Positions 2,847 through 38,711 are shown, counted from the stretch's first letter. The stretch is DNA of 64,000 nt from an uncultured Gammaproteobacteria bacterium (GCA_963752875.1 CAVWAH010000011.1:121761-185760), one strand, 5' to 3'. Translations and numbers: made by a program. The notes: generated by a model not told the origin, from the letters alone.

Positions 2847-3217
2847 GTCAGCCTGATGCCGCCGGTAGTGATACCGGCGGCATGTTTGCCGCGATAGATG
2901 CGAAAGATGGCGCGGCATTCGTTTCCTACCTGACCGAAGATTCCGTATTCCGTTTCGGCTCTGCACTTCCCGTGCAGGGCCGTGATGCTATTCAGGCTGC
3001 CGTTGATGGCTTCTTCGGGACGATCCTGGGCTCTGCGCATGAAATCGCCAATACGTTTCAGTGCGACGATACGGTTATCTGTGAAGGTGAGGTGACCTAT
3101 CACCGGCACGACGACTCAAAGGTCACATTGCCATTCACGGATGTCCTCGAGTACAGCGGTGATCTGATCTCCCACTACAAGATCTACATCGACATCGGTC
3201 CGTTGTACGCCGAGTAG
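2843..3217 (+). CDS. SnoaL/NTF2-like fold protein (function unknown)
   Basis: 124 aa. ATGA overlap with the upstream cytochrome gene. Size and pattern are typical of SnoaL-like/NTF2 family domains. No signal peptide is visible. Confidence 0.55.
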   Translation: MSQPDAAGSDTGGMFAAIDAKDGAAFVSYLTEDSVFRFGSALPVQGRDAIQAAVDGFFGTILGSAHEIANTFQCDDTVICEGEVTYHRHDDSKVTLPFTDVLEYSGDLISHYKIYIDIGPLYAE

Positions 3218-3324
3218 TGCTTCCTGAATAGAACGAGAGACCCCTCTCGGAAATCCCTGATAGCGAACAAGCGCTTATTGGCTTACTAAGACGCAAAGCG
3301 TCAGGTATCAGGGACTCAAAAACA

Positions 3325-6126
3325 ATGACACAGCCCACACGGCTTACTCGTATTTTATTGGCAGCTGCGGCGATCCTGTGGTTCGCGGGAAGCCCGGCTC
3401 TGGCCCAGGAAGATGAAAGGTGCCTGAAGTGTCACGACGATCCTGAGCTGACCAGCTACCGTGGAGACACGGAAATATCGGCCTATGTTACGGCTGCGAT
3501 GATCGCGGGATCTGTGCACTCCGGCGAGGCGTGCGTGGACTGCCACGGTGATCTCGCTGGAAGCAAACGCCGCAGGCACGCCGAAGACCTGGAGCCCGTC
3601 GAATGTGGCGAGTGCCACAGACGCCAGGCCAGAGCGCATGGCAACAGCCTGCACGGTGCCGCAGCTGCCGAGGGCGATCCAATGGCCCCGACCTGTGGCG
3701 ACTGCCACGGCAAGCACGACGTCCTGTCGTCCTCCAGCGCCAACGCGACAACCGCGGTGATGAATATCCCGGTGCTTTGCGGAAACTGCCACCGCGAGGG
3801 CGCTCCGGTATCGCGAACTCATGAGATTTCGCAGGAGAACATCCTCGAGAATTACTCGATGAGTATTCACGGTGAAGGTCTGTTCTCGCAGGGCCTCACC
3901 GTCACGGCTGTTTGCACCTCTTGCCACACCGCACATGACATCCTGCCGCATACCGATCCGAAATCGAGTATCCACGCCGACAATGTCGGCGAGACATGTA
4001 CCGCATGTCACGGCCTGATCGAAAACGTGCACCGCAAGGTCATCGAGGGCCATTTGTGGGCGGAAGATCCGGGCAAGATCCCTGCCTGTGTCGACTGCCA
4101 CGCCCCGCACAAGATTCGTAACGTATTTTACCCGGACGGCCTGGCCGACAAGGATTGCCTGAGCTGCCACAGTCAGCCTGACCTGTCGATGGAACGTGGT
4201 GGCAACACCATCAGCCTGTACGTCGATGAAGAAGCCTACGAAAACTCGAAGCATACAGACACTTCTTGTGCCCAATGCCACACGGACGTGACCGTCGCCG
4301 AAGAACGTGCGTGTTCAACAATACAGACGCAGGTAGATTGCAGTATTTGCCATGCTGAGCAGGTGTTGGAGTACGGCGGCAGTACACACGGAACCCTACA
4401 TGCCGAAGAAGATCCGGATGCGCCTTCCTGTCAGGATTGTCACGCCAAGCACGCGACACTTGGCCAGGATTCGCCGGCGTCGCCGACCTATGCGCTCAAT
4501 GTTCCGACGCTCTGTGGAGACTGTCATCGCGTGGGCGAGCAGGCCGCCGGCCGGATAGAGGCGAAGGTCGGTGACATAGTCGGCAGCTATGAGGATAGCG
4601 TGCACGGCCGCGGATTGATTGAGAGCGGTCTTGTTGTAACAGCGACTTGCGCCGATTGCCACGGGGCACATAACGAACTTCCGCCGGACAGCCCGAACTC
4701 CAACATTAACCCGAATAATATCGCGGGTACCTGTGGTCAATGCCATCATGGCATTGAGGAGCAGTTCCGGGAGAGCGTTCACTGGACGGACGATCCGGTC
4801 GCTGATGAAAACAAACCCACCTGCGAAGACTGTCATTCCTCGCACACCATCATGCGTACCGAACAGATTGGATTCCGCGACCTGATGATGGAACAGTGTG
4901 GCCGTTGTCATGAGGACGAGACGGAGACATTTTTCGATACATTCCACGGCAAGGTTTCGCGCCTGGGTGGTGAGGGCGTCGCCAAGTGTTACGACTGCCA
5001 TGGAACTCACGGCATCGTTGCGCCAACGGATCCCAATTCGACGCTCAGTAGGGATAATGTCGTCGAGACCTGTGGGCAGTGCCACGAGGGCTCTCACCGG
5101 CAATTCGCGGGCTACCTGACACACGCGACGCATCACGATCGCGAAAAATACCCTTGGTTGTTCTGGTCGTTCTGGGGCATGACTGCGTTGCTGGTCGGTA
5201 CACTGTCATTTGCCTTGCTGCACTCGTTCGCCTGGGTGATCCGACTCGTGCTGAATCGTGAAGAGTGGCGAGCACACAAGGCGTTGAGCCAGAGCAGAGA
5301 CCAGAAATTCTATCGCCGTTTCAGCCGACTCCAACGCACCATGCATATCATAATGATGCTCAGCTTCTTCACGCTGGCGTTGACAGGCATGGCGTTGAAA
5401 TTCTCATACATGCCCTGGGCACAGGCGGTTTCCAATTTCCTGGGCGGATTTGACAGCATGGGCTTCCAGCACCGCGTTGGAGCGTTCGGCCTGCTGATTG
5501 TTTTCATTCTGCATACCTACGACATTGTCAGCTATAAGCGAAAGACGAAGCAGACCATGTGGCAGATCATTAACGGACCGGACTCGATTATTTTCAATGG
5601 CCGTGATCTCAAGGAGTTCATCCAGTCGATCAAGTGGTTCTTTGGCATGGGCGAGCGTCCCAACTACGGCCGCTACACCTACTGGGAGAAGTTCGATTAC
5701 TTCGCGGTCGGCTGGGGTATCATCATCATCGGTACGACCGGACTCGTACTCTGGTTCCCCGAAATCTTCACACGTATTGTGCCGGGCTGGGCAGTGAATG
5801 TGGCTACGATCATTCACAGTGACGAAGCGCTGCTTGCAGTGGGTTTCATCTTCTCGATTCACTTCTTTAACACCCACTTCCGGCCCGACAAGTTCCCGAT
5901 GGATCCCGTGATATTTACTGGGCGTTTGTCTGTCGATGAGCTGAAATACGACAAGCCTGGCGAATACGAAGAGCAGGTGGAATCCGGTGAGCTGGAGAAT
6001 AACCTCGTCAGAGCGTTCCCAAGGTTCAAAGACAAGGGCGTGAGGATATTTGGCATGCTGGCGCTGACCTTCGGTCTGGTGGTGCTGGGCCTGATTGTGT
6101 ACTCGATGCTGTTCGGCTACCGTTGA
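3325..6126 (+). CDS. 19-heme c-type cytochrome fused to a C-terminal b-type cytochrome membrane domain (CbcL-like architecture)
   Basis: Signal peptide ...AGSPALAQE. 19 CXXCH motifs counted in residues ~33-590. The C-terminal ~330 aa form multiple TM helices with conserved His (RTMHIIMM, FQHRVGA, FILHTYD, TIIHSDEA, SIHFFNTHF), as in FdnI/HydC-type diheme cytochrome b. Confidence 0.85.
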   Translation: MTQPTRLTRILLAAAAILWFAGSPALAQEDERCLKCHDDPELTSYRGDTEISAYVTAAMIAGSVHSGEACVDCHGDLAGSKRRRHAEDLEPVECGECHRRQARAHGNSLHGAAAAEGDPMAPTCGDCHGKHDVLSSSSANATTAVMNIPVLCGNCHREGAPVSRTHEISQENILENYSMSIHGEGLFSQGLTVTAVCTSCHTAHDILPHTDPKSSIHADNVGETCTACHGLIENVHRKVIEGHLWAEDPGKIPACVDCHAPHKIRNVFYPDGLADKDCLSCHSQPDLSMERGGNTISLYVDEEAYENSKHTDTSCAQCHTDVTVAEERACSTIQTQVDCSICHAEQVLEYGGSTHGTLHAEEDPDAPSCQDCHAKHATLGQDSPASPTYALNVPTLCGDCHRVGEQAAGRIEAKVGDIVGSYEDSVHGRGLIESGLVVTATCADCHGAHNELPPDSPNSNINPNNIAGTCGQCHHGIEEQFRESVHWTDDPVADENKPTCEDCHSSHTIMRTEQIGFRDLMMEQCGRCHEDETETFFDTFHGKVSRLGGEGVAKCYDCHGTHGIVAPTDPNSTLSRDNVVETCGQCHEGSHRQFAGYLTHATHHDREKYPWLFWSFWGMTALLVGTLSFALLHSFAWVIRLVLNREEWRAHKALSQSRDQKFYRRFSRLQRTMHIIMMLSFFTLALTGMALKFSYMPWAQAVSNFLGGFDSMGFQHRVGAFGLLIVFILHTYDIVSYKRKTKQTMWQIINGPDSIIFNGRDLKEFIQSIKWFFGMGERPNYGRYTYWEKFDYFAVGWGIIIIGTTGLVLWFPEIFTRIVPGWAVNVATIIHSDEALLAVGFIFSIHFFNTHFRPDKFPMDPVIFTGRLSVDELKYDKPGEYEEQVESGELENNLVRAFPRFKDKGVRIFGMLALTFGLVVLGLIVYSMLFGYR

Positions 6127-6183: not shown

Positions 6184-7566
6184 GTGGCCAGGGTCTTTCA
6201 TCTTTGGCGTATTGGGGCAGGGCTTATGTTGGATTTAACCGGTCACTGGGTCGGCGCTACCGCCCTCCTGATATTTGTCCTGGCTTACCTGCTGGTCATC
6301 GTCGAGGAATTCACGCACCTCAGAAAGTCCAAGCCGGTAATCCTTGCTGCCGGCCTGATCTGGGCAATCATCGCCTATCAGTACGCTACTGCGTCCATTT
6401 CACATGCGACGGAGGAGGCCGTCCGACATTTCCTGACGGAGTTTGCCGAGCTGTTCCTCTTCCTGCTCACAGCGATGACCTACGTCAATGCGATGAGTGA
6501 GCGTCGCGTGTTCGCGGCGCTCCGGTCGTGGCTCGTAAACCATGAATTCAGCTACCGACAACTATTCTGGATTACCGGCATCCTCGCCTTTTTCCTCTCG
6601 CCCATAATTGACAACCTCACGACAGCACTGGTGATGTGTGCGGTATTGCTCGCAGTGGGAAAAGAGAGCCCGAAATTCGTCAGTATTGGTTGTGTCAATA
6701 TCGTCGTCGCGGCCAACGCAGGCGGAGCATTCAGTCCATTTGGGGACATCACGACATTGATGGTCTGGCAAAAGGGGACATTGGAATTCCAGACGTTCTT
6801 CGCACTGTTTGTTCCGTCAGTCGTCAACTACCTGGTGCCGGCAGTCGTCATGTCTTTGGCGGTGCCTAAAGCAAGCCCACAGGCGGAGACTGAGGTTGTC
6901 GAAATGCAGCGCGGTGCCAAGAGAATGATGTTTCTCTTCGGATGCACGATTGCAACGGCGGTCAGTTTTCACAACTTCCTTCACCTCCCACCATTTCTCG
7001 GCATGATGACGGGACTCGCCTATCTTCAGATCTTCGGCTACTACCTGCGAATCACACACACTGCTGAAATGGAAAATGGACCGATTCGTGGCCGACATGG
7101 AGAGATCACTGCGTTTGACAGCTTTCGAGAAATCGCGCGCGCCGAATGGGACACGCTGTTGTTCTTCTTCGGTGTGATCATGTGCGTTGGTGGCCTTGGG
7201 TTCATCGGCTACCTGGATCAATTGTCCGTTTACGCCTATTCGGAACTCGGCGCGACGGTTGCCAACATACTGGTTGGTATCGCATCCGCGATCGTGGACA
7301 ACATTCCGGTCATGGTAGCGGTACTGCAGATGTACCCCGAAATGGATGTTGCGCAATGGTTGCTGGTTACGCTAACAGCTGGCGTCGGCGGCAGCCTGCT
7401 TTCTATCGGTTCAGCCGCAGGTGTTGCCCTGATGGGTCAGGCGCGAGGTCAATACACCTTCTTTTCTCATCTGAAGTGGACGCCGGCGATTGCCGCCGGC
7501 TTCGCACTGAGTATCTGGGTGCATTTCCTGGTCAACAGCCATTACATCGGGGTGGCCCCGACGTAG
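6184..7566 (+). CDS. nhaD: Na+/H+ antiporter, NhaD/ArsB-type permease
   Basis: 460-aa polytopic membrane protein with the NhaD family pattern. The track start is GTG 6184; an in-frame ATG at 6226 (MLDLTGHW...) is an equally plausible start. Confidence 0.7.
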   Translation: MARVFHLWRIGAGLMLDLTGHWVGATALLIFVLAYLLVIVEEFTHLRKSKPVILAAGLIWAIIAYQYATASISHATEEAVRHFLTEFAELFLFLLTAMTYVNAMSERRVFAALRSWLVNHEFSYRQLFWITGILAFFLSPIIDNLTTALVMCAVLLAVGKESPKFVSIGCVNIVVAANAGGAFSPFGDITTLMVWQKGTLEFQTFFALFVPSVVNYLVPAVVMSLAVPKASPQAETEVVEMQRGAKRMMFLFGCTIATAVSFHNFLHLPPFLGMMTGLAYLQIFGYYLRITHTAEMENGPIRGRHGEITAFDSFREIARAEWDTLLFFFGVIMCVGGLGFIGYLDQLSVYAYSELGATVANILVGIASAIVDNIPVMVAVLQMYPEMDVAQWLLVTLTAGVGGSLLSIGSAAGVALMGQARGQYTFFSHLKWTPAIAAGFALSIWVHFLVNSHYIGVAPT

Positions 7567-7590: not shown

Positions 7591-9462
7591 CTAGGTGTCT
7601 TCTTCGGGAGTCTCCTGATAGACAACCTCACCGCGTTCCTCTGCCCTTGAGAAAGGCGGCTTGCCGGTAAACCAGGTCGTATCCATCGGGTAGACCGCCG
7701 GGTCGAGCATAACGGAGTAGAAATGCCAGATGAGGATTGCAAGCGTCGCCAGGATTGCCTCGAGGAAATGCAGGACGGTAGCCGCCTCAGGAACCCATCC
7801 CGGGAGCCATGTCAGTGTAAGGTTCTCGAACCACAACACTAGTCCCGTCACCGCTGTGACGAACGTGCCCCACAACGCGGCCCAGTATTCGACCTTCTCA
7901 ACGTAGCCGACGCGCACCGGGGCCGGCGGATCGGAACGCAGCCCCAGGTTGTAGCTGGTCCGGTGGACAAACTCACTGAAATCGGCGGTCTTCGGCAGGA
8001 ACGATGCCATCTGACCCCGTGCGCGCGCGCTGATGGCGAGATGGCCGAAATGAATCAGGCAGGCTCCCATGAGACCCACTGCGGCGATACGGTGGACCAG
8101 ACCGCGAAACTCGTTGTCCCCGAACTGCAGTAATACAGCCCACCAGCTTTCCGGGTACTTCAATGCAAATCCCGTGTATACGAGCACGAAGAAACTGACG
8201 GCGGCCAAGGCGTGCACAAGCCGGAATGGTCGAGACATGCGTTCCTTGATCGAGCTTTGCTCGGGAGCCCGGCGCCGCCACAACGAATAGGTGCGCGTCT
8301 TTTTGACCAGGTCGAGCAGGTTGTGCAGCAGCATGCCGATGACGGTGACCCAAATCAGGGGAATGTAGATTTTCCTGATCCAGTAGGCGACGACGTTGGA
8401 GGTCTCGTCGGCAATCGTGTGTACAGGACCGATCGCAAACCGGGTTCCCGCTCCGGCATGGCATTGTCCGCAGGTCTCTGCCAGGTTATCTGTGTGGGTG
8501 TGTGAATCGGGGTCGGTCGACGGCAGAATGTTGTGCACGCCGTGGCAGCTTGCGCAATTGGCGACACGCTGTGAACCGCCGCGTGCGGCCAGTCCGTGGA
8601 AGCTCTCGCCATAGGACGGAACCTGGTCCACAGGCAGGCCGTATTTTTCGCTGAGCTTGAGGTCTGAGTGGCAGGGACCGCAAACCTGGATCGGGACGTT
8701 GCTGGCCGAAACGGGCGATCCTGGAGCCGCGATCGCTAAAATCCGATGCTCGCCATGACAATCTGTGCACACCGGTGATTCGTATACGCCGGCGGCCGCT
8801 GCCATCCCGTGAATGCTGCGACCGAACTGCCTGGTGATCTTACGGTGGCAATCCCCGCACGTGTCAGGCACGTTCATGCGATGAATAGAGGAGGTCGGGT
8901 CAGAGGCGGGCAACGGCGAGTGGGCCGAATGGCAGTCGCTGCAACCGGGTCCCGGATCATGATCGTGAACGGCTTGCGCGTGCACGCTGGCCGTGTAGGC
9001 CGCGATCGGGCGAATAGTCGCCACGTTTCGATCCGCCGGCGGTTCCTTACCATGACATGCGCCGCAAGTTTCACCTTGGGATAATGAAGAAACCGGGGAT
9101 GACTCATCGGTGTACGACGTCATGGTGTGGGTTTCGCCATGGCAATCCGCACAGGTCGGCAATATCGGGTCAGGGAATTTCTGCGGGCCGAGCTCGCCGT
9201 GCGCGCTAGTGGATTGCTCCTCGACTACATCATCGTGGCAGGATCCGCAGTCGACGGGATCGAGTCCGCGCCTGTGCCGGCGCTGGTCGGCACCGACATG
9301 GCAGTCGAGGCATTCCGTCGTGCCGTGGACCGTAAGCTCGAATTGCGCGAGGTCGGTTTCGTGGCAATCGAGGCAGGGATTTACCTGTTCGGTGTCGCTC
9401 GCTTGTAATGTGAGCGGCATACAGGCAAGGAGAAGGGTGAAGCTGGCGATGAACTTGTGCAC
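7591..9462 (-). CDS. 11-heme c-type cytochrome fused to a C-terminal b-type cytochrome membrane domain (CbcL-like architecture)
   Basis: Signal peptide MHKFIASFTLLLACMPLTLQA. 11 CXXCH motifs. The C-terminal TM domain carries conserved His (RLVHALAA, LVHRIAA, CLIHFGH, TVLHFLEA, LIWHFYS) and aligns by eye with the C-terminal domain of the 3325-6126 protein. Confidence 0.85.
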   Translation of the reverse strand: MHKFIASFTLLLACMPLTLQASDTEQVNPCLDCHETDLAQFELTVHGTTECLDCHVGADQRRHRRGLDPVDCGSCHDDVVEEQSTSAHGELGPQKFPDPILPTCADCHGETHTMTSYTDESSPVSSLSQGETCGACHGKEPPADRNVATIRPIAAYTASVHAQAVHDHDPGPGCSDCHSAHSPLPASDPTSSIHRMNVPDTCGDCHRKITRQFGRSIHGMAAAAGVYESPVCTDCHGEHRILAIAAPGSPVSASNVPIQVCGPCHSDLKLSEKYGLPVDQVPSYGESFHGLAARGGSQRVANCASCHGVHNILPSTDPDSHTHTDNLAETCGQCHAGAGTRFAIGPVHTIADETSNVVAYWIRKIYIPLIWVTVIGMLLHNLLDLVKKTRTYSLWRRRAPEQSSIKERMSRPFRLVHALAAVSFFVLVYTGFALKYPESWWAVLLQFGDNEFRGLVHRIAAVGLMGACLIHFGHLAISARARGQMASFLPKTADFSEFVHRTSYNLGLRSDPPAPVRVGYVEKVEYWAALWGTFVTAVTGLVLWFENLTLTWLPGWVPEAATVLHFLEAILATLAILIWHFYSVMLDPAVYPMDTTWFTGKPPFSRAEERGEVVYQETPEEDT

Positions 9463-9741
9463 TGAGATGCCCGGTGTTCCAGAATGTTCTGGCGTTAGGA
9501 ACGCTTGGCCATATTATGGGCCCCATTCGTCGATATCCCAACACCTTGAAACTGCGAGAAATACGGATTTCCGTGCTGCTCCTACGTAGTCTAATATCGC
9601 ACTCGCTACGACCAACTAAAATACTCTGAGTGTTGCTCAGTTGGGGACAATAAGAGCGTTCAAGCGAGAACTGACGGCAGACTTGCCAGGACAATAAATA
9701 TCAGGCATCCCCCGGTCATTGATCGGAACTTGAGGAACACC

Positions 9742-11148
9742 ATGATCAAGAACTTCTTTGCGTCAATTACTCATAACGCCATCAGCCTGGTTGGTACCGC
9801 AATCGCCGTGGCTACACTGGTACTTATGGCGAGCCTGTTCGGCATGGAAATTTGGGGCTTCGATGGCGGCCCATACCTGGGAATACTGACGTACCTGATT
9901 CTGCCGATGATTTTTGCCATTGGCTTGATTCTGATTCCGGTCGGCGCGGTTCTTTATCGCCGCAGGCTGCGACGCGTGCAGGGAGGAGAAGACACGCCTC
10001 TACTGCCAGTGTTCGACCTGAACATCCAATCGACACGCCGCTGGATGCTGATATTTGTCGCTGCGACGATGTTCAATATCGTCATTGTCGCGGGTGCGAC
10101 CTACAAGGGCGTACATGTCATGGAGTCCGTGGAATTTTGCGGTCTCGCCTGCCACTCGGTCATGGAGCCCGAGCACACAGCCCATGCAAGGTCGGCGCAT
10201 TCGCGGGTTGCGTGCGCCGATTGTCATATTGGCCCCGGTGCAGACTGGTTCGTTAAGTCCAAGCTGGATGGTGCGTGGCAGCTCATCTCTGTAGCCTTTG
10301 ATCTCTACCCGCGCCCGGTGCCCACGCCGCTGCATGATTTGCGCCCGGCACGGGAAACCTGCGAGCAATGCCATTGGCCGACGAAGTTTGTCGGTGACAG
10401 GCTCAAGGTGATTAATCACTTTGAAGATGACGAGGCGAGTACAGAATTAACGACGGCATTGCTGCTGAAGGTCGGGGGCTCCAGCGGAAGCAGTTCGCAC
10501 GGCATTCATTGGCATGTCGATCCGGATGTCAAGATTCGCTACCGGTCAGACGACACCCGTGAAGAAATCTACGAGGTGGAGTTTGCTCATGGCGACGATG
10601 AGGCGGTTATCTACTCAGACCGCAAGGCGCCGGAGGAAGGCGGCGTCTGGCGTTCGATGGACTGCGTCGATTGCCATAACCGGCCGTCGCATATCTATGA
10701 ATCGCCGGGACCTGCAATCGATGGGGCTATCAAGACCGGCCTGATCGATCGGTCACTGCCGTTCGTCAAACGCGAAAGCCTGCGCGTGATTAATGCCGAA
10801 TACGAATCTCACGAGGTGGCTCGAGAAGCGATCACTGCCGGGTTCACGGCTTTCTATGCCGACAACTACCCGGACATTGCAACCGAAAGTGGCGAGGAAA
10901 TTGACGCGGCGGCAAACGCGCTGGGCGACATCTTTTCGGTCAATGTCTTTCCGGGCATGAATGTCTGGTGGGATACCTATCCGAACCATATCGGACACGA
11001 ACAATCGGATGGGTGCTTCCGTTGCCACAGGCGCAGCATGCGAACAGCGGACAGGAAGCAGATCTCGGACGACTGCGACAATTGCCACGTCCTGCTTGCT
11101 GAAGAAGAGGAAAATCCAGACATCATGGCCGTGCTGAAACCAGAGTGA
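9742..11148 (+). CDS. membrane-anchored NapC/NirT-like multiheme cytochrome c (3 TM helices, 6 heme motifs; ImcH-like architecture)
   Basis: ATG 9742 follows GAGGAA (the track start is TTG 9730). Three N-terminal TM helices. Heme motifs are CGLACH (a CX3CH), CADCH, CEQCH, CVDCH, CFRCH and CDNCH. Confidence 0.75.
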   Translation: MIKNFFASITHNAISLVGTAIAVATLVLMASLFGMEIWGFDGGPYLGILTYLILPMIFAIGLILIPVGAVLYRRRLRRVQGGEDTPLLPVFDLNIQSTRRWMLIFVAATMFNIVIVAGATYKGVHVMESVEFCGLACHSVMEPEHTAHARSAHSRVACADCHIGPGADWFVKSKLDGAWQLISVAFDLYPRPVPTPLHDLRPARETCEQCHWPTKFVGDRLKVINHFEDDEASTELTTALLLKVGGSSGSSSHGIHWHVDPDVKIRYRSDDTREEIYEVEFAHGDDEAVIYSDRKAPEEGGVWRSMDCVDCHNRPSHIYESPGPAIDGAIKTGLIDRSLPFVKRESLRVINAEYESHEVAREAITAGFTAFYADNYPDIATESGEEIDAAANALGDIFSVNVFPGMNVWWDTYPNHIGHEQSDGCFRCHRRSMRTADRKQISDDCDNCHVLLAEEEENPDIMAVLKPE

Positions 11149-11897
11149 ATCAAATGCTTGCGAACCCCTCAAGGCGTCAGCTTATCAATGAGGTAGTTAG
11201 TGGTGGCACCGGACTGGTGTTGGCGCTATTTATGTGGGGGCACGTTGTGCTGGTCGGTTCGATCTTGACCGGCGAACGCGGCTTCGACTGGATGGCGACG
11301 ATGCTCGAGGACTATTTCATCGCCCAGCCAACGGTGATAGCGATTTTCTCTCTGTTCCTGGTGCATGCGGTATTTGCGGCGCGCAAGATTCCGTCGCAGC
11401 TTCAAGAACGCAAGCGTCTGGCCGAACTCGCTAAGGGACTCAGAAATTCGGGTCGGGAAAAAGTGGCAACGCGTACACCGTATTCGCCGTTCCGTCCGCA
11501 CCTCGAGTCGATGCTCTGGATCTGGCAGGTACGCACAGGCATGGTCATGCTGGTGCTGGGTAGCTTCCACCTTATTCTGCTCGCTCTCGATGTGTTCACC
11601 CCGCTGTTTGGTGACATGGCGGGCATCGAGTCGTCTACATCGATGGCACGTGTTGCCGCAGGTTTGTGGCTGCCGTACGCGATCCTGTTGCTGTGTGTCG
11701 AATTTCACGCCAGCGTCGGCTTGTATCGGCTCGCGATCAAATGGGGCGCCGATCTGTGGCTGTCGCGCAAGGTGATGCACCTGATCGAACAGATAATTTT
11801 CTGGACGATTCTGGTGATCGGTTCAATTACGTTGTTTGTACTCGCAGGCTGGATGGATCCACCGCTGGCCTTCCTGCTCGAAGGGGCCGGGTCATGA
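11145..11897 (+). CDS. frdC: fumarate reductase/succinate dehydrogenase diheme cytochrome b subunit, type B (5-TM, FrdC-like)
   Basis: 250 aa with 5 predicted TM helices and four TM histidines (MWGHVV, LVHAVF, SFHLIL, EFHASV), as in Wolinella/Geobacter-type FrdC. GTG 11145 overlaps the upstream TGA; the alternative start is ATG 11154. Confidence 0.75.
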   Translation: MNQMLANPSRRQLINEVVSGGTGLVLALFMWGHVVLVGSILTGERGFDWMATMLEDYFIAQPTVIAIFSLFLVHAVFAARKIPSQLQERKRLAELAKGLRNSGREKVATRTPYSPFRPHLESMLWIWQVRTGMVMLVLGSFHLILLALDVFTPLFGDMAGIESSTSMARVAAGLWLPYAILLLCVEFHASVGLYRLAIKWGADLWLSRKVMHLIEQIIFWTILVIGSITLFVLAGWMDPPLAFLLEGAGS

Positions 11898-13840
11898 TGC
11901 AAAAGCTCCTGACAACGGATGTACTGGTTATCGGCGGCGGGCTAGCCGGCGAACGTTGCGCGATAGAGGCGGCAGCAGCTGGCCAGGAAGCGTTGATCCT
12001 CTCACTGGTACCGCCGCGCCGCAGCCACAGTTGTGCAGCACAGGGCGGCATGCAGGCGGCGTTGGCGAATTGCGTCAAGGCAGAGGGCGATAGTCCGGAT
12101 GTCCATTTCCTCGACACGGTGCGTGGCTCCGACTGGGGTGCGGATCAGGAAGTCGCCAATATTTTCGCCGACAACGCGCCGGTCGCAGTGCGCGAACTCG
12201 CACATTTCGGTGTGCCATGGTCGCGCGTAAAGGGAGGCAAGAATCACTACTTCATCAAGGGCGAAGAGGTTGAGATAGACGAAGCGCTCGAGAACGATGG
12301 TCTGATTGGCCAGCGCGACTTCGGCGGCACTGCCAAGTGGCGAGCCTGTTACGCGGCGGCTGGTACCGGACACGCAGCGCTTTACGCAATCGACAGCGAA
12401 GTCGTGCGCCTTGGGATTACGGTACGAGACCGTACCGAAGCGGTTGCTCTGATTCACGATGGCAGTCGATGCGTGGGGGCGGTCGTCAGGGACCTTCGCA
12501 ATGGCTCACAGTTCGCTGTGATGGCCAAAGCGACCGTTATCGCTACAGGCGGATACGGTCGCATTTATGGCCAGTACACGAGTAATGCGACGATCAACGA
12601 AGGCACGGGAGCATCGATTGCTCTTGACACCGGCATCGTGCCGCTTGGCAACATGGAGGCCGTGCAATTTCACCCGACAACCCTGTCACCGAGCGGAATA
12701 CTGGTGACAGAAGGTTGCCGAGGTGACGGAGGTTATCTGCTCGACAAGAACATGAACCGATTCATGGTCGAAGCGGAACCCGAGAAACAGGAGCTGGCCA
12801 GCCGTGACGTTGTGTCGCGACACATGGTGCAATGTATGCGCGACGGCAACGGCGTCGAGTCACCGTATGGTCCGCATCTCTGGCTCGATATCCGGCATTT
12901 GGGTGAGGAACACCTGCGGACCAAGTTGCTGGAGGTTTGGGATATCTGTCGTGACTTTGTTGGACGCAACCCTGCCGAAGAACTGATACCGGTGCGACCG
13001 ACCCAACACTATTCAATGGGTGGAATACGCGTCAACAAGGATGGCCAGGCATACGGACTTGCGGGCCTGTTTGCCGTCGGCGAAGCGGCCTGCTGGGACA
13101 TGCACGGCTTCAATCGTCTTGGCGGCAACAGCCTGGCCGAAACGCTGGTTTCCGGACGCATCGTCGGTCGTCGTGTCGCGGAATATGCCACCGGGACGAC
13201 ACTGCGAGCCGACACAGGTGCCGCTTTTGATGCGCTCGAAGCTGCCGCAAATCGATCCCGGGATTGGCTGGTACGTACTGGCAATGGCCCCAGCGTCTAC
13301 GAGATTCGCGACAGAATGGGCGAGATCATGATGCACAAGGTCGGGATCTTCAGGAACGGTGACGAACTTGCCGAGGCTGTCACGGAACTCGGGCAGTTGC
13401 TGGACGACTGTGATAGTGCAGTGTTGCGCTGCAAAGACCCGGGTATGAACCCGGAGTTGTCCTTTGCGCTACGTCTCAAAGGCATGCTGCGCCTCGCGAT
13501 GACCGTCGCCAAAGGCGCGCAAGCCCGCACAGAAAGTCGCGGCGCACATTTCCGGATGGATTTCCCGCTTCGCAATGACCGTGAATGGCTCAATCGAACA
13601 CTGGTCCGTTGGGGAATCGATGATAGCGCACCCTCATTCAGTTACGAGCCCACTGGCATCATCGACCTGCCACCCGGTCATCGCGGATACGGTAGTGACG
13701 AGCGCATCGAGATGACGACATCGCTCGATGATTACAACGAAAATGTACTGGCTGAGCAGATTCGACATGGCCGCCTCGATAGTGTTGAGGAGATGGGCAG
13801 TCGATTGCGGCGCGGCGCAAGGAATGCAGAGGCAGGCTAG
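11894..13840 (+). CDS. frdA: fumarate reductase/succinate dehydrogenase flavoprotein subunit
   Basis: ATG 11894 overlaps the frdC TGA (ATGA). N-terminal DVLVIGGGLAGERCA dinucleotide fold, RSHSCAAQGG (covalent-FAD His) and QFHPT. The track ORF starting at 11666 is an upstream in-frame extension overlapping frdC. Confidence 0.9.
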   Translation: MMQKLLTTDVLVIGGGLAGERCAIEAAAAGQEALILSLVPPRRSHSCAAQGGMQAALANCVKAEGDSPDVHFLDTVRGSDWGADQEVANIFADNAPVAVRELAHFGVPWSRVKGGKNHYFIKGEEVEIDEALENDGLIGQRDFGGTAKWRACYAAAGTGHAALYAIDSEVVRLGITVRDRTEAVALIHDGSRCVGAVVRDLRNGSQFAVMAKATVIATGGYGRIYGQYTSNATINEGTGASIALDTGIVPLGNMEAVQFHPTTLSPSGILVTEGCRGDGGYLLDKNMNRFMVEAEPEKQELASRDVVSRHMVQCMRDGNGVESPYGPHLWLDIRHLGEEHLRTKLLEVWDICRDFVGRNPAEELIPVRPTQHYSMGGIRVNKDGQAYGLAGLFAVGEAACWDMHGFNRLGGNSLAETLVSGRIVGRRVAEYATGTTLRADTGAAFDALEAAANRSRDWLVRTGNGPSVYEIRDRMGEIMMHKVGIFRNGDELAEAVTELGQLLDDCDSAVLRCKDPGMNPELSFALRLKGMLRLAMTVAKGAQARTESRGAHFRMDFPLRNDREWLNRTLVRWGIDDSAPSFSYEPTGIIDLPPGHRGYGSDERIEMTTSLDDYNENVLAEQIRHGRLDSVEEMGSRLRRGARNAEAG

Positions 13841-13846
13841 GGAACT

Positions 13847-14590
13847 ATGAGCGAAACTACACGCCGACTACGGTTCGAAATCTTCCGGTATAACCCGGAG
13901 GACGAGAACAGTACGCCGCATACGGATGTCTTCGAGCTTGACGAGACGCCGTTCATGACGCTGTACATTGCACTCAACCAGATTCGTGAACGATTCGACC
14001 CGGGTTTGCAGTTTGATTTTGCATGTCGCTCGGCAATCTGCGGTTCCTGCGCGATGATGGTTAACGGGCGACCTGCGCTGGCGTGCCGGACGCTGACAAG
14101 CGACCTTACGGAAAAGATTCACCTCTATCCGCTGCCGGTCTTCAAGCTGATCGGTGATCTGTCCGTGGATACCGGGACCTGGTTCCGCGCGATGGTCGAA
14201 CGCACCGAAGCCTGGATACACGAGCGCTTGCCATTTGATCCCGATGCAACAGAAGACCGCATGAGCGACGACGTAGCCGCGGCAATTTACGAAAATGATC
14301 GTTGCATCGAGTGTGGCTGTTGTGTTGCGGCGTGTGGTGCAGCCAATATCGATTCTGAGTTCCTCGCCGGAGCCGGGTTAAATAGAATTGCCCGTTTCAT
14401 GCTCGATCCGCGCGATCAACGGACCGATGGTGACTGGTTCGAGGTTCTGGCTGGTGACGAGGGCGTCTTTGCCTGCATTGGCATGATGGCCTGTGAGGAT
14501 GTCTGTCCGAAGGAACTGCCGCTTCTCGACGTGTACGGATACCTGCGCCGAAAGTCATTCTCCGCGGGACTCTCAAGTAACAAGAAATAG
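13847..14590 (+). CDS. frdB: fumarate reductase/succinate dehydrogenase iron-sulfur subunit
   Basis: 2Fe-2S region CRSAICGSCAMMVNG...C and Cys clusters CIECGCCVAAC and CIGMMACEDVCP. Confidence 0.9.
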   Translation: MSETTRRLRFEIFRYNPEDENSTPHTDVFELDETPFMTLYIALNQIRERFDPGLQFDFACRSAICGSCAMMVNGRPALACRTLTSDLTEKIHLYPLPVFKLIGDLSVDTGTWFRAMVERTEAWIHERLPFDPDATEDRMSDDVAAAIYENDRCIECGCCVAACGAANIDSEFLAGAGLNRIARFMLDPRDQRTDGDWFEVLAGDEGVFACIGMMACEDVCPKELPLLDVYGYLRRKSFSAGLSSNKK

Positions 14591-14787
14591 ACTGAGCGCA
14601 AAGCTCACTTGGTTCTTGCCGTAGGTATCTTCGGCTAGTACGTATTTATGTCTATACGTCGCTACGGTTGTATTGAACGAGGTGAATCTTCGGCATAGTT
14701 CAGGCAACAACCAATATCAATAAAAAGTTCGCTGCTGAAGCCTAAATTAACCTTTCGAGTGTCAAGGGGGCACAGGGAGAGGTAACC

Positions 14788-15258
14788 ATGAAGCGGCACG
14801 TCCTGCACCCGTTATGGGTAGCAATCGGACTAGTGGGGCTGATATTCCTGGCCAGGAGTTTTCTGGTCCCGGACGACTTTGGCGTTCACGGCGACAGCTT
14901 CACCTACAATTATCATCGCCTCAGCAATATTCAGGAATGGCAAGATTTTCCCGTGAAGTACCGTGGGAAGGATTCCTGCACTGAATGCCACAAAGCCAAT
15001 GTCAGGAAGAACAGGCGATCTCCCCACAAACGCATCGAATGTGAGAGCTGCCATGGGCCGTCAGGTAACCATCCTGACGACGTGGAATACCTGCCGCTTA
15101 ACAAAGAACGAGCCCTCTGCCTGCGATGTCACGCATCTCTTGAGTATCCCGATGCGGCCAGATCCGACTTGCCTGCGATCCATGATCGGCGCCACAAACG
15201 CAAGCGCGAATGCGTTGAATGCCACAATCCACATGACCCAAGGGAGGATGTCGAATGA
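14788..15258 (+). CDS. membrane-anchored tetraheme cytochrome c
   Basis: GGAGAGG ribosome-binding site. N-terminal TM helix. Motifs CTECH, CESCH, CLRCH and CVECH in 156 aa. Confidence 0.8.
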   Translation: MKRHVLHPLWVAIGLVGLIFLARSFLVPDDFGVHGDSFTYNYHRLSNIQEWQDFPVKYRGKDSCTECHKANVRKNRRSPHKRIECESCHGPSGNHPDDVEYLPLNKERALCLRCHASLEYPDAARSDLPAIHDRRHKRKRECVECHNPHDPREDVE

Positions 15259-16025
15259 CTTGTTCTCGCAGGGATTTCCTGAAAGATGCCGTCGGTGGAA
15301 CGGTTGCATCCGTATTACCGCTGAGCGCATTTACATTCCTGACTACAGCCGAAGCCAAGGCGGCGATAGCTGACGCAAAAGTCAGGTGGGCGTTCCTTGT
15401 CGACACGAACAAGTGTGTCGGTTGCGGATTGTGCGTCGACGCATGTAAGAATGAAAATGAGATTCCGTATGACGCACCTGTCACCCGGACCTGGGTCGAA
15501 CGCTATGTAGTAACCAAAGACGGTCGAACGCTTGCAGATTCTCCCAAGGGTGGGAGAGACGGATTCACAACCGGCAATATTCGTGAGGAGGAGATTGATC
15601 CCGATAATGTCGCAAAGGCATTTTTCGTTCCAAAGCTCTGCAATCAATGCGACAACCCGGCCTGTGTGCAGGTGTGCCCTGTTGGCGCGACGTACCAGAC
15701 GCATGACGGGGTGGTCCTCGTGGACAGGGAATGGTGCATCGGCTGCGGCTACTGCATCATGGCTTGCCCCTATGGCGTCCGCTTCTTCCACCCGGAGCAC
15801 AGAGTCGCCGACAAATGCAATTTCTGCTACCACCGGATTACCAAGGGTCTTCAGCCTGCCTGTGTGCAGAGCTGCGCATTCGGCGCCCGCAGGTTGGCGA
15901 ACCTGAAGGACCCCGATGACCCGGTAACAAAGATCATAACGACCGAAAGAGTGGCGGTCCTCAAGGACGAGTACGGGACAAAGCCGCATGTCTTCTATCT
16001 TGGTCTCGATGCCAGCGTGAGGTGA
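15255..16025 (+). CDS. Tat-exported 4Fe-4S ferredoxin-type subunit (NrfC/PsrB/SirC-like)
   Basis: ATGA overlap with the upstream gene. Twin-arginine signal CSRRDFLK. Cys clusters CVGCGLCVDAC, CNQCDNPACVQVCP, CIGCGYCIMACP and CNFC...C. Confidence 0.85.
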   Translation: MTCSRRDFLKDAVGGTVASVLPLSAFTFLTTAEAKAAIADAKVRWAFLVDTNKCVGCGLCVDACKNENEIPYDAPVTRTWVERYVVTKDGRTLADSPKGGRDGFTTGNIREEEIDPDNVAKAFFVPKLCNQCDNPACVQVCPVGATYQTHDGVVLVDREWCIGCGYCIMACPYGVRFFHPEHRVADKCNFCYHRITKGLQPACVQSCAFGARRLANLKDPDDPVTKIITTERVAVLKDEYGTKPHVFYLGLDASVR

Positions 16026-16029
16026 TTTC

Positions 16030-17283
16030 ATGACCCCGGACATCATCGTGCACGGAGCTGAGTGGACAGTAAAAGAGCTGTTCGTCTACCCCAACGAATT
16101 CATCTACTGGAGCATCCAGATCGTCATGTATCCATACATGACAGGCCTGGTGGCCGGCGCGTTCGTACTGTCCTCTCTGTACCACGTATTCGGCCAGAAG
16201 GACCTCAAGGAAATAGCCCAGTTCTCACTGGTGTTTTCCCTGGCTCTGTTGCCAGTGGCTGCGCTGCCATTGTTGCTGCACCTGCAACAGCCGACGCGAG
16301 CCATGGAGCCGTTGTTGACGCCGCACTTCACGTCGGCAATCGCCGCATTCGGTATTGTTTTCACTGTGTACGGATTGATCGTCGTCAGCGAGATCTGGTT
16401 CGTCTATCGCGAGTACTTTGTGTATCAGCTTGAGACCCTGAAGGGCGTACCCGGGTTCTGGAACGCACAAAGGCGCATCGCCTACAGGGCACTGACTTTC
16501 GGCGCGCGTGATGTGAGCGCGGATGCGCTCAAGGTCGACCACAAGGCTGCGAAAATACTTGCGGGCATCGGCATTCCCGTGGCCTGTTTCCTGCATGGGT
16601 ACGCCGGGTTCATCTTCGGTTCTGTCAAGGCCAACGCGTTGTGGATGTCGCCACTGATGCCGGTCATTTTCATCATGTCAGCTATTGTTTCCGGCATCGC
16701 CCTTTGCATGCTGACCTATATCATAATAATGGAGTGGCAGGCATTTCGTCAGCGTCGGAAGAACGGGGCCGAGGCAGCCGGAGACATCAAAGGCGCCGAG
16801 AAGGAAGTAGTCGGCAGGGCCACTCGCTACCTGCTGGGATTCCTGATCGCTGCTATTAGCCTCGAACTTCTGGACCTGATCTTCCGCGGCTACACGGCAA
16901 TGAAGTCCTGGGATATTCTGCGCTCGGTAATGTACGGCAAGGATTTCATCAATATCTTCGTCCTTCAGTACGGACTCGGAAACCTTGTCCCGTTCGTATT
17001 GTTGATTCTGCCGCGCCTGACGATCAAACGCACTGTACTGGCGCTGCTGCTCGTACTGTTCGGCGTGTTTATGATGCGCTGGAACGTGGTTATCGGCGGC
17101 CAGGCATTTTCATTGTCGTTCTCGGGCTACATGCATTACCACATTCCCATCATCCCGCACAGCGTTGAAACCTTTAAGGAAGGGCTGTTCGGCGCATTGA
17201 CCGTGATGGCTACTCCGTTCGTGTTGTTCTGGTTTATCAACAAGTTCGTGCCGTCTCTGCGGAGGGATATCGGAGCCGCCTAG
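16030..17283 (+). CDS. NrfD/PsrC-family integral membrane quinone-interacting subunit
   Basis: 417-aa polytopic membrane protein directly after the FeS subunit, showing the NrfD family pattern. Confidence 0.85.
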   Translation: MTPDIIVHGAEWTVKELFVYPNEFIYWSIQIVMYPYMTGLVAGAFVLSSLYHVFGQKDLKEIAQFSLVFSLALLPVAALPLLLHLQQPTRAMEPLLTPHFTSAIAAFGIVFTVYGLIVVSEIWFVYREYFVYQLETLKGVPGFWNAQRRIAYRALTFGARDVSADALKVDHKAAKILAGIGIPVACFLHGYAGFIFGSVKANALWMSPLMPVIFIMSAIVSGIALCMLTYIIIMEWQAFRQRRKNGAEAAGDIKGAEKEVVGRATRYLLGFLIAAISLELLDLIFRGYTAMKSWDILRSVMYGKDFINIFVLQYGLGNLVPFVLLILPRLTIKRTVLALLLVLFGVFMMRWNVVIGGQAFSLSFSGYMHYHIPIIPHSVETFKEGLFGALTVMATPFVLFWFINKFVPSLRRDIGAA

Positions 17284-18971
17284 TGACTTCTACTCTCGCC
17301 GATCTTGAAAACCGGCTGGCGGCCGTTGAGCGACGCCTCGCCTCGCTTGAGGGCGGTGCTGATGAAGTGCGCCAGATCGAACGAGAGGCTGCGGCGCCCA
17401 GACTTGATGGTGGCTTCGCTACCAATGCGTCGACGCATGTCGGGCGGGTCCTCCTTATCTTTGGCGGAGCCTACTTGCTGCGCGCCATCACCGACTATGA
17501 GTTTGTTCCCAAGGCTGTTGGTCTGCTCATGGGTGCGATTTACGCTGTCTTCTGGTTGTTCATGTCATATCGCAAGGGCCGGTTGGAGTCGCAGCGCACC
17601 GATGCAGCGTTTTTTGGTGGAACATCCATCGTATTGACGCTTCCGCTACTCCACGAGGCGACGACGAAATTCGAATTGCTGTCCGGTGTGCAAGGCATCG
17701 TCCTGCTCCTGATCTACTGCACGCTGGTGATGATGGTAGCGATCGTACACAACCAGAAAGTCCTGGCCTGGATGGTCACGGCAGGTGGAATCGCTACAGC
17801 TACGGCATCTCTGGTTGCGTCGCACAATGCGGTATCTGTAGCGGCCTTCCTGCTCGTTCTTGGCGTCGGGTCACTTCTGGCTGAATACAGGCGGGAGTGG
17901 CTGGGGTTGCGCTGGCTCGGCGCAGCCGGTGCAAATCTTGGAGTACTAGCCATTGTTGCTCTGTCAAACAGCGATCGCTGGTCGATAGATCCCCGGCTGC
18001 CGTTCATTTTTGCCGTCGTATTGTTGGCGATATACCTGTCCAGCTTTACGTATCACTCGCACATTCGCGATCAGCTGTTAGGCTTTTTCGAGACCCTACA
18101 AGCTTTGATTGCTGTTGGAATCGTGATCGGTGCTGCGAGTATGGCGGTCCAGGGCGGTCAGCTGGGAATCGCAACCGCCGGCATGCTGAGCCTGGTGCTC
18201 GGCATCGGCGGCTATGCCCTGGCAACCACCAGGGGCACCCGTGAGCTGCGCTATCGCAACTTCTTCTATTACTCGACACTCGGCCTGATATTCGTCGTGG
18301 CAGGTACCGGATTGCTCCTGCCTCTGGTTTGGGCTGCCGTTGTCTGGGCTGCTATGGCTGTCATGATGGCCTGGTTTAGTGGTCGGAGTGGCTGGGTCAG
18401 CCTGAGTCTGCAATGTACGTTTCTCCTGTTGGCTGCGGGAATTGGCTGCGGATTGCTGGCCACTGGACTGAAGGCGCTGGCCGGCGACCCGGCCAATGGC
18501 TGGCCGGTGTTCATGTACTCGCACGTTGCCGTTGCCGTGGCGACTGTTGCATGCCTGTTCATTCCTGTGGCACAAAAATCGGAGCGCTGGGGTGTCCTCG
18601 CCGGACTGCCGCAGCTTGTTGTGCTGGCGTTGTCCGTCTGGGAGGTCGGTGGCCTGATCGTAGTCTACGGCTCGATCCTGCTTGCCGGCGCGGATGGGAC
18701 CGAGATAGACCGCGCCGTGCTTGCCGCGCTGCGCACGGCAGTATTGTCAACCGCGTCGGTGACGCTGGCCCTGTCGAGTCAGCACTGGCGCTGGCCGGAG
18801 GCGCGTTGGCTCGTTTACCCGGTACTGGTATTGGTGGGGATTAAGCTGTTCCTCGAGGACTTTCCCAACGGCCAGCCGGCCAGCCTGTTCGTGGCACTGG
18901 CATTCGTCGGGAGCGCATTGCTACTCGTTGCGCCAATATTGAAGCGTGACGATAATCCGCCCGGCACCTAG
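17283..18971 (+). CDS. large polytopic membrane protein with N-terminal coiled-coil (DUF2339-like)
   Basis: The GTG start shares one nucleotide with the nrfD-like TAG (TAGTG). N-terminus LADLENRLAAVERRLASLEG, followed by about 15 hydrophobic helices. The family assignment is from memory of the DUF2339 pattern. Confidence 0.55.
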   Translation: MTSTLADLENRLAAVERRLASLEGGADEVRQIEREAAAPRLDGGFATNASTHVGRVLLIFGGAYLLRAITDYEFVPKAVGLLMGAIYAVFWLFMSYRKGRLESQRTDAAFFGGTSIVLTLPLLHEATTKFELLSGVQGIVLLLIYCTLVMMVAIVHNQKVLAWMVTAGGIATATASLVASHNAVSVAAFLLVLGVGSLLAEYRREWLGLRWLGAAGANLGVLAIVALSNSDRWSIDPRLPFIFAVVLLAIYLSSFTYHSHIRDQLLGFFETLQALIAVGIVIGAASMAVQGGQLGIATAGMLSLVLGIGGYALATTRGTRELRYRNFFYYSTLGLIFVVAGTGLLLPLVWAAVVWAAMAVMMAWFSGRSGWVSLSLQCTFLLLAAGIGCGLLATGLKALAGDPANGWPVFMYSHVAVAVATVACLFIPVAQKSERWGVLAGLPQLVVLALSVWEVGGLIVVYGSILLAGADGTEIDRAVLAALRTAVLSTASVTLALSSQHWRWPEARWLVYPVLVLVGIKLFLEDFPNGQPASLFVALAFVGSALLLVAPILKRDDNPPGT

Positions 18972-19372: not shown

Positions 19373-19569
19373 GTTGCTTCTCCGTCCGCGCCTTTGCGCT
19401 TCTTGCGGCAGTTGCCTTTGCCGCTGCATAGTTCACAGCCACCCCCATTGAGGCCGCCGCAGCTGCCACTGATCGCTTTGCGTCCGTTCATGACACCAAC
19501 ACTCATGCCCGTAATCACGAGCAGGATGATGATGAAGCTAAACAACAGGGTGGTCATGATCATATTCAT
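19369..19569 (-). CDS. nqrM: (Na+)-NQR maturation protein NqrM (DUF539)
   Basis: 66 aa: one TM helix, then GSCGG...C..C...C and a basic tail. Positioned directly downstream of apbE in the nqr operon. Confidence 0.75.
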   Translation of the reverse strand: MNMIMTTLLFSFIIILLVITGMSVGVMNGRKAISGSCGGLNGGGCELCSGKGNCRKKRKGADGEAT

Positions 19570-21830: not shown

Positions 21831-21831
21831 G

Positions 21832-38698: not shown

Positions 38699-38711
38699 GA
38701 CCGGCAGACTA

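Follow-up and report, generated by a model that had tools for sequence, protein, structure and literature searches.

An imcH-frdCAB gene unit conserved in Woeseiaceae-like gammaproteobacteria sets an ImcH-type cytochrome before a type-B fumarate reductase

ImcH is a membrane cytochrome that carries electrons from the menaquinone pool toward the cell exterior (PMC4251993, PMC6295460). A homolog of its gene heads a set of four closely packed genes, imcH-frdCAB, in a stretch of 64,000 nucleotides (nt), here called the window, from an uncultured Gammaproteobacteria bacterium (GCA_963752875.1 CAVWAH010000011.1:121761-185760); the source is a Woeseiaceae-like marine-sediment gammaproteobacterium. 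The Geobacter sulfurreducens protein, GSU3259, has seven haem motifs at residues 132, 156, 205, 311, 428, 448 and 486, and transmembrane (TM) segments at 13-35, 45-67 and 100-122 (Table S3, PMC6295460). The Geobacter gene is monocistronic and can be deleted with no effect on growth with fumarate (PMC4251993). Its product is an inner-membrane menaquinol:cytochrome oxidoreductase that serves extracellular acceptors of high potential. The protein recycles menaquinone, and residues E127, H137, K173, Q179 and Y188 have been singled out around its haem 1/quinol site (bioRxiv 10.1101/2023.05.03.539133). A first haem site of the CX3CH form has already been stated as a trait of the family (Levar 2014, PMC4251993; Zhong & Shi 2018, PMC6295460). 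The homolog of Anaeromyxobacter dehalogenans (A2cp1_2287 and relatives) contains 468 amino acids (AA), three TM segments and motifs at 134, 158, 207, 309, 425 and 445 (Table S3, PMC6295460).

The enzyme specified by the three downstream genes has solved counterparts in Wolinella succinogenes (2BS2) and Desulfovibrio gigas (5XMJ), both with three subunits and a single five-TM dihaem anchor. FrdCAB of G. sulfurreducens is also of type B and is the succinate dehydrogenase of the tricarboxylic acid (TCA) cycle during metal respiration. That this enzyme is bifunctional is credited to Butler et al. (2006), as cited in PMC12307469. It is a menaquinone-linked, three-subunit complex in an electron exporter that has ImcH and CbcL, and its physiology is the template for the reading preferred below. 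A NapC/NirT menaquinol dehydrogenase is tied to fumarate reduction in the CymA-FccA system of Shewanella as well (PMC6295460).

In the window the four genes and the first haem motif are as follows:

9742-11148, plus strand: imcH homolog; 468 AA, with three N-terminal TM helices and a periplasmic six-haem domain (one CX3CH and five CX2CH motifs)
10138-10155, plus strand: first haem motif, CGLACH (CX3CH), encoded by tgc ggt ctc gcc tgc cac; residues C133, C137 and H138, followed by an invariant Met141
11145-11897, plus strand: frdC; 250 AA, five-TM dihaem cytochrome b anchor of a type-B quinol:fumarate / succinate:quinone oxidoreductase
11894-13840, plus strand: frdA; 648-AA flavoprotein with a flavin adenine dinucleotide (FAD)-binding GGG motif from residue 13 and without a signal peptide
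13847-14590, plus strand: frdB; 247-AA iron-sulfur subunit, its ATG 6 nt past the frdA stop (which ends at 13840)

The imcH frame, defined from the DNA and a map of open reading frames (ORFs), runs from an ATG at 9742, with a GAGG Shine-Dalgarno sequence 5' of it, to a TGA at 11146-11148. A TTG at 9730 is an alternative in-frame start; homologs are nonetheless 468 AA long at 100% coverage. The GTG of frdC (11145-11147) and the imcH stop run together as GTGA, a 4-nt overlap. Translation of frdC could also begin at an in-frame ATG at 11154, but in L001, the nearest relative among the genomes, ATG stands at the -4 position and ACG takes the place of the window ATG at 11154, so the overlapping start is the one conserved. 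The frdC stop (TGA, 11895-11897) in turn overlaps the frdA start (ATG, 11894-11896) as ATGA, and the ORF map contains no frdD-like frame between frdC and frdA. The overlaps, the 6-nt gap and the coordinates given in the original prediction, a reading of this DNA from its sequence, were all recovered in the DNA and ORF map; together with the junctions conserved in relatives they bear out its view of the four genes as one tightly coupled unit.

Conservation of the arrangement was examined in 80 genome loci that carry an ImcH relative, each with 8-kilobase (kb) flanks, which were searched with all of the neighbouring window proteins. The frdCAB genes lie directly 3' of imcH in ten species-level genomes (L001-L007, L009, L010 and L013), labelled Woeseiaceae or Gammaproteobacteria, whose ImcH proteins are 68-86% identical to that of the window. 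One of these, L001, retains the full synteny of the window: nhaD, cbcL, imcH, frdCAB, and genes for a four-haem cytochrome, an FeS protein, NrfD and DUF2339. In the remaining informative loci, some 70, the 8 kb on either side of imcH contain no frd gene. These frd-free loci include close relatives (L008, 70%; L011, 65%) and the isolate Lentisalinibacter orientalis (L014), as well as Steroidobacteraceae, Acidobacteriota, Myxococcota, Zixibacteria and KSB1; in them imcH usually adjoins CbcL-like cytochromes, often with the NrfD/FeS/cytochrome/DUF2339 set. A further Woeseiaceae locus, L016 (1-9404), has frdC divergent from a cbcL ortholog (73%) with no imcH between them, its imcH (57% identity) being located beyond the 19-haem gene on the far side of the cluster; it offers a natural comparator, without the linkage, for the linked clade.

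Scanning of metagenome contigs with a FrdC alignment yielded 80 loci at 74-97% identity, 78 of them with enough upstream sequence to be informative, and in all 78 imcH is immediately upstream of frdC. The distance from the imcH stop to the frdC start in 88 linked loci is -4 nt in 34, -1 in 19, 0 to +3 in 32 and +10 to +21 in three, that is, no more than 3 nt in 85 of the 88; the frdC/frdA distance is -4 nt in 82 of 83. The flanks vary. The orientation of cbcL changes between divergent and co-directional from genome to genome, L003, L005 and L010 have another cytochrome-b fusion upstream of imcH, and the downstream NrfD-type module is present or absent among relatives, with imcH-frdCAB unchanged.

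In a neighbor-joining tree of ImcH the linked sequences group together, linked L010 is on a sister branch with unlinked L008 and L011, and Lentisalinibacter falls outside, indicating a single origin of the arrangement in this lineage with occasional loss. Among the 80 loci retrieved no second ImcH locus was found for any linked genome, so that the linked copy is taken to be the general ImcH of the cell. The adjacency is therefore not peculiar to this genome: it is kept in one Woeseiaceae-centred clade, in ten species genomes and 78 of 78 informative contigs, and no plus-strand promoter-like site lies inside the unit, a result opposite to the one that the original prediction had named as fatal to its proposal. 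No earlier description of an imcH-frdCAB operon was found in the literature searched, where absence is no proof of absence overall. What is new is the conserved operon; the proteins and the CX3CH site are ordinary for their families.

The cytochrome had been called ImcH-like, and its NapC/NirT homology, the positions of its motifs and TM segments and its quinol-site residues uphold that call. It matches PF03264 (NapC/NirT) over residues 101-177 with 41.1 bits against a gathering cut-off of 24.1, and three hydrophobic segments, the number expected of the family, are seen at about 11-40, 42-74 and 99-121 (Kyte-Doolittle). The CGLACH codons and the five canonical CX2CH motifs were verified in the DNA, the latter being CADCH (158), CEQCH (207), CVDCH (308), CFRCH (425) and CDNCH (445). 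End-to-end identity is 41-57% to homologs from Anaeromyxobacter, Holophagaceae and Acidobacteriota, taxa named in the literature as carrying ImcH. By these features the protein is a true ImcH-family member and a predicted menaquinol dehydrogenase.

The family is large, with at least 7968 clusters at 90% identity (E <= 1e-5) and 721 clusters at 50% identity (E <= 1e-30). An alignment of 231 members from many phyla was used to judge conservation. The first motif is CX3CH in 224 of these homologs and CX2CH in six, and each of the five further motifs is conserved in at least 216. Glutamate or aspartate occupies position 128 in 217 of the 231 sequences, and H138 is found in 230, M141 in 230, K174 in all 231, Q180 in 221 and Y189 in 198. 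By a constant offset of +1 against the published numbering, E128, H138, K174, Q180 and Y189 of the window protein are equivalent to E127, H137, K173, Q179 and Y188 of G. sulfurreducens ImcH. The three residues between the cysteines, regarded at first as an anomaly of this gene, are thus a family hallmark (224 of 231 homologs; PMC4251993, PMC6295460). Recombinant G. sulfurreducens ImcH made in Shewanella contained 6.6 Fe per protein against seven motifs (bioRxiv 10.1101/2023.05.03.539133), so the CX3CH site is evidently loaded by the ordinary maturation system and the search for a dedicated haem lyase that had been proposed is unnecessary.

Compared through published positions, the motifs of GSU3259 at 132, 156, 205, 311, 428 and 448 correspond to those of the window protein at 133, 158, 207, 308, 425 and 445; the two proteins also share three N-terminal TM segments, a CX3CH motif right after the third of these and a NapC/NirT-like region. 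They differ in that GSU3259 has seven haems and 507 AA, as opposed to six and 468, the window protein being without the C-terminal extension that bears motif 486, and in that the window gene is the first of a four-gene operon. A protein search with a seven-haem, 507-AA representative (P0144) returned only Acidobacteriota and Sulfotelmatobacter sequences and no named Geobacter ImcH, and the Geobacter residue numbering was found in none of 150 ImcH cluster representatives. The A. dehalogenans homolog is alike in length, in its three TM segments and in the near-identical positions of its six motifs, and the protein of an Anaeromyxobacter locus (L050) aligns end-to-end with that of the window at 48% identity. 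Loci of the Anaeromyxobacter type (L046, L050) differ in having a CX2CH first site (CGSCH) and no frd genes alongside. The host class differs too, since the 2018 catalogue holds no gammaproteobacterial ImcH homolog (PMC6295460).

About 25 of the 150 cluster representatives (P0126-P0248) are 580-1166 AA long, with up to 27 CXXCH motifs in C-terminal extensions, and the diversity of the family exceeds the range of 6-10 haem motifs given in the literature. Met141 lies three residues past the CX3CH histidine (window 10159-10164, residues 140-141). The stretch from TM3 through haem 1 to haem 2 is similar to that of NrfH, the NapC/NirT quinol dehydrogenase of defined structure (2J7A chain C; FCGLACHSVMEPEH...CADCH against FCT-SCH-IMNPVG...CNDCH), a weak match with E 0.012, and in the HMMER alignment the methionine of the NrfH CXXCHXM motif is aligned with the family-invariant M141. 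NrfH differs in having one TM segment and four haems where ImcH has three and six, and the ImcH sequence is longer by one residue within the haem motif and by one more ahead of the methionine. The methionine of the CXXCHXM motif is the haem 1 ligand in NrfH. The published ImcH model proposes His/Gln ligation of haem 1 and leaves this methionine undiscussed (bioRxiv 10.1101/2023.05.03.539133); ImcH may resemble NrfH in having a Met ligand at haem 1.

The assignment of FrdCAB to the type-B enzymes, made in the original prediction, is borne out by model matches, haem-b histidines and key glutamates, which identify it as a dihaem, single-anchor quinol:fumarate / succinate:quinone oxidoreductase. 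FrdC matches PF01127, and its five hydrophobic segments indicate a single five-TM anchor. Its best solved relative is Wolinella 2BS2_C (E 2.7e-16), with which H33, H74, H142 and H188 align at H44, H93, H143 and H182, and E55 and E186 at E66 and E180. In the Wolinella enzyme the four histidines are the ligands of the two haems b (2BS2/1QLA structures), E66 is the distal quinol-site glutamate and E180 is the glutamate of the E-pathway. All six residues of FrdC are invariant in ten relatives, and FrdC is best described as a divergent member in which the fold-defining residues are all present. FrdA scores 938 bits with NF006383 (cut-off 663), its best solved relatives being D. gigas 5XMJ_A (784 bits) and then Wolinella 2BS2_A (678 bits), and FrdB scores 366 bits with NF010071 (cut-off 264) and matches the Pfam domains Fer2_3 and Fer4_8.

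The window enzyme thus shares with those of Wolinella and D. gigas three subunits, the single five-TM dihaem anchor, the four histidines, equivalents of E66 and E180, and equivalog-level matches of FrdA and FrdB. It differs in that FrdC is distant (E ~1e-16, below the equivalog cut-off), in a helix II-III loop that is longer in most members of the clade, and in an operon that opens with a multihaem cytochrome gene. Since FrdA is without a signal peptide and has its FAD fold from the start, the catalytic subunits face the cytoplasm. FccA of Shewanella, in contrast, is a soluble periplasmic flavocytochrome fed directly by CymA; with FrdA facing the cytoplasm, ImcH cannot feed its active site directly. 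The periplasm-facing 8-methylmenaquinol:fumarate reductase was rejected as an identity, the scores with its SdhA and SdhB models being 365 bits against 1100 (NF042982) and 79.5 against 600 (NF042952), with no signal peptide.

The reading which best fits these observations, with a probability of about 0.65, is that of one translationally coupled operon for two separate, known enzymes of the menaquinone pool that are co-expressed. The polycistronic operon would supply the two in fixed proportion. ImcH would oxidise menaquinol next to haem 1, at the periplasmic face, and its electrons would pass to periplasmic cytochromes and then to the Mtr-type outer-membrane system encoded next door. FrdCAB would link the cytoplasmic succinate/fumarate couple to the same menaquinone pool and, like the Geobacter enzyme, would run both ways: in cells respiring extracellular acceptors it would be the succinate dehydrogenase of the TCA cycle, reducing menaquinone, and with fumarate at hand it would turn to menaquinol:fumarate reduction. 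The two would communicate via the pool, without contact. With a shared promoter, a menaquinone-dependent complex II and a menaquinol exit would appear together on the switch to a low-potential anaerobic chain, and for a facultative gammaproteobacterium that switches quinone pools one promoter would be a simple way to raise a working low-potential chain. Here we infer quinone specificity, flux direction and the absence of physical contact; we lean slightly toward succinate oxidation as the main direction during extracellular respiration.

Some points weigh against this reading or parts of it. Co-transcription of imcH-frdC-frdA-frdB is deduced from gene geometry alone. FrdC reaches 114.5 bits with NF010072, below the equivalog cut-off of 187. 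The closest solved enzymes, those of D. gigas and Wolinella, are fumarate reductases in vivo, so that the oxidative direction is a preference. Finally, an imcH/frdC junction as tight as that of frdC/frdA is also what would be expected of a four-subunit complex.

This last point leads to the first rival, a physical supercomplex in which ImcH would be a fourth subunit docked on FrdC, with the distal haem b wired to the haem chain of ImcH, both lying toward the periplasm. Such an assembly would have succinate:cytochrome c (or cytochrome c:fumarate) oxidoreductase activity independent of the menaquinone pool and would be spared the uphill step from succinate to menaquinone, a step that costs proton-motive force in Bacillus and Geobacter. 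In its favour, the imcH/frdC junction equals that between the genes of the true subunits FrdC and FrdA in tightness and conservation, the four-gene order is invariant while the flanks vary, and the quinol sites of both enzymes are on the periplasmic side (from what is known of the Wolinella quinol:fumarate reductase and NrfH, and from the ImcH model). With haem-domain identity matched, the TM identity of ImcH, examined as a proxy for a partner in the membrane, is also higher among the linked sequences, at 0.69 against 0.44 and 0.53 in groups without the linkage; the unlinked L008 of the same lineage, however, has this pattern too, so that the signal follows phylogeny and not linkage. Among 389 family proteins there is no ImcH-Frd fusion, the long variants carrying extra c-haem domains, and the adjacency is seen in no other lineage. 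L016 possesses frdC without an adjoining imcH, and the linked imcH is apparently the sole ImcH gene of its genomes. FrdC keeps the E66-type residue and ImcH its quinol-site residues, so that both still look like quinone enzymes; overlapping genes are common between non-interacting proteins; and the Geobacter gene is monocistronic and dispensable for growth on fumarate (PMC4251993). On balance a supercomplex appears unlikely. The two enzymes are considered separate because of the roughly 70 loci without frd, L016, the single ImcH of each linked genome, the lack of fusions and the Geobacter imcH genetics. Of the two inferences in the original prediction, that of co-regulated partners on the menaquinone pool is accordingly supported, while that of a shared supercomplex is left without direct support.

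A second rival, historical accident, would have imcH landing before an existing frdCAB and becoming fixed in one lineage, with no selective meaning beyond a shared promoter. The linkage is indeed confined to one clade, L016 shows the presumed ancestral position of frdCAB without imcH, and L008 and L011, inside or beside the clade, are unlinked. Also listed on this side is base composition: it is uniform across the region, with no GC or skew anomaly at the operon and therefore no sign of recent transfer or insertion. Against it stands the junction, which is 3 nt or less in 85 of 88 loci while ImcH identity falls to about 61-68% and that of FrdC to about 61-65% and the neighbours are reshuffled. 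Maintenance of the junction through such divergence and reshuffling points to purifying selection on the arrangement, and chance alone is an improbable account of it.

The weakest rival is reverse flow, an electron-uptake module in which ImcH would be a quinone reductase for Mtr/CbcL electrons from Fe(II), reduced humics or conductive partners and FrdCAB would reduce fumarate, as G. sulfurreducens does with cathode electrons. The operon does lie among Mtr- and MtoC-like genes of the kind found in iron reducers and iron oxidisers, but this reading is the most remote of the three, given that the 2018 survey recorded ImcH homologs only in Fe(III) reducers and read them as quinol oxidases only (PMC6295460), that purified ImcH titrates from -350 to -150 mV (bioRxiv 10.1101/2023.05.03.539133) and sequences give no direction, and that free fumarate in sediment is probably scarce.

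The boundaries of the unit are these:

9463-9741, strand not assigned: divergent intergenic region between the cbcL-like gene and imcH; presumed promoter region of the imcH-frdCAB unit
14593-14607, plus strand: weak terminator-like hairpin of 5 bp directly 3' of frdB; a consensus-scan match at background frequency, only suggestive

Within the first of these regions a perfect palindrome, ACGGATTTCCGT, at 9563-9574 is followed by CTACGTAG-TCTAATATC at 9582-9598. The palindrome and adjacent block (9563-9598) are kept in L001, L004 and L012, all with the same divergent layout, and this block may be the core of a promoter or a site bound by a regulator. No FNR-type site (TTGAT-N4-ATCAA, two mismatches or fewer) was found upstream of the window imcH, and among the window and nine relatives the same scan gave a sole match, with two mismatches, in L007. 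A consensus scan of 9300-15000, whose match counts are at background level and so only suggestive, revealed no plus-strand sigma-70-like site in 9742-14590, and the sole match in 9463-9741 was on the minus strand. Beyond frdB lies a 197-nt AT-richer gap, with the next gene preceded by a strong ribosome-binding site. Rfam detected no RNA family anywhere in the window.

The other features of the window that bear on respiration are:

3-1988, minus strand: MtrC/OmcA-family outer-membrane decahaem cytochrome, cut by the window edge (TIGR03507, 401 bits against 209; Pfam PF22113)
3325-6126, plus strand: 933-AA protein with 19 CXXCH motifs and a cytochrome b561 domain (MtoC/MtrH/CbcL-like)
7591-9462, minus strand: CbcL-like protein of 623 AA with 11 CXXCH motifs and a C-terminal cytochrome b domain (Pfam Cytochrome_C7, Ni_hydr_CYTB)
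14788-18971, plus strand: four-haem cytochrome (156 AA), 4Fe-4S protein (256 AA), NrfD-type membrane subunit (417 AA) and DUF2339 membrane protein (562 AA) (Pfam/NCBIfam)
26406-27386, minus strand: menA, 1,4-dihydroxy-2-naphthoate polyprenyltransferase (TIGR00751, 128 bits against 102.15)

The MtrC/OmcA-family lipoprotein has a collagen-like GPAGPAGPAG run right after the lipobox cysteine, and partner mtrA and mtrB genes would lie before the start of the window. The 1.3 kb between this gene and the 19-haem gene (1989-3324) has a sole long ORF (2265-2966, minus strand, 233 AA), Arg-rich and of low complexity and without a Pfam match; the interval is probably non-coding or holds small unannotated genes. 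The cytochrome c/b fusions with 19 and 11 CXXCH motifs flank nhaD. The CbcL-like protein at 7591-9462 is a second inner-membrane quinol oxidoreductase, divergent from imcH, and CbcL-like genes are neighbours of imcH in the majority of the 80 genome loci, across phyla. With the two fusions, ImcH and the NrfD-type module, 15 kb contain four candidate quinol:cytochrome oxidoreductases.

The four-gene set at 14788-18971 also adjoins imcH in Steroidobacteraceae-like gammaproteobacteria and Acidobacteriota (L028, L030, L032, L034, L038 and L048). The window genes for NrfD and DUF2339 overlap by 1 nt at stop and start, and a Cbc-type quinol oxidoreductase might include DUF2339 as a partner not recognised before. 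The menA gene is directly upstream of nqrABCDEF-apbE (19566-26390, minus strand; Nqr and ApbE Pfam matches), on the same strand, a pairing of a menaquinone-synthesis gene with the Na+-pumping NADH:quinone reductase; its presence is evidence, at the level of gene content, that the organism makes a naphthoquinone, (demethyl)menaquinone. Also encoded are hemN and a Na+-pumping oxaloacetate decarboxylase. Three sodium-cycle systems, the NhaD antiporter (6184-7566), Na+-NQR (19566-26390) and OadAB (36914-39842), suggest a sodium-motive component in the energetics of the organism. From its gene content the window is a respiratory, electron-export island around imcH-frdCAB, and the presence of MtrC, CbcL-like proteins and menA is consistent with menaquinol oxidation toward high-potential extracellular acceptors, the role for which ImcH is known.

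Woeseiaceae are prominent in marine sediment communities, and a 2025 comparative study credits benthic members with iron reduction only from mtrCAB, with ImcH and fumarate reductase unmentioned (PMC12175321). The locus described here adds the inner-membrane half of the pathway, namely ImcH, two CbcL-like proteins and an NrfD-type module, with menA nearby, and it extends ImcH to a class missing from the 2018 catalogue (PMC6295460). The CX3CH site is nothing new, and the novelty of imcH-frdCAB lies in how two known enzymes are arranged, not in a system of a new kind. A direct complex, if it were true, would be a new coupling of complex II to a cytochrome chain, joining the TCA cycle to extracellular electron transfer without menaquinone. 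Under the preferred reading of two co-expressed enzymes, one clade hard-wires the menaquinol exit ImcH to a menaquinone-type complex II, the two enzymes on which the acetate-oxidising metal respiration of Geobacter also depends, and the operon would then be a compact genomic marker of Geobacter-like anaerobic respiration in an abundant facultative gammaproteobacterial group.

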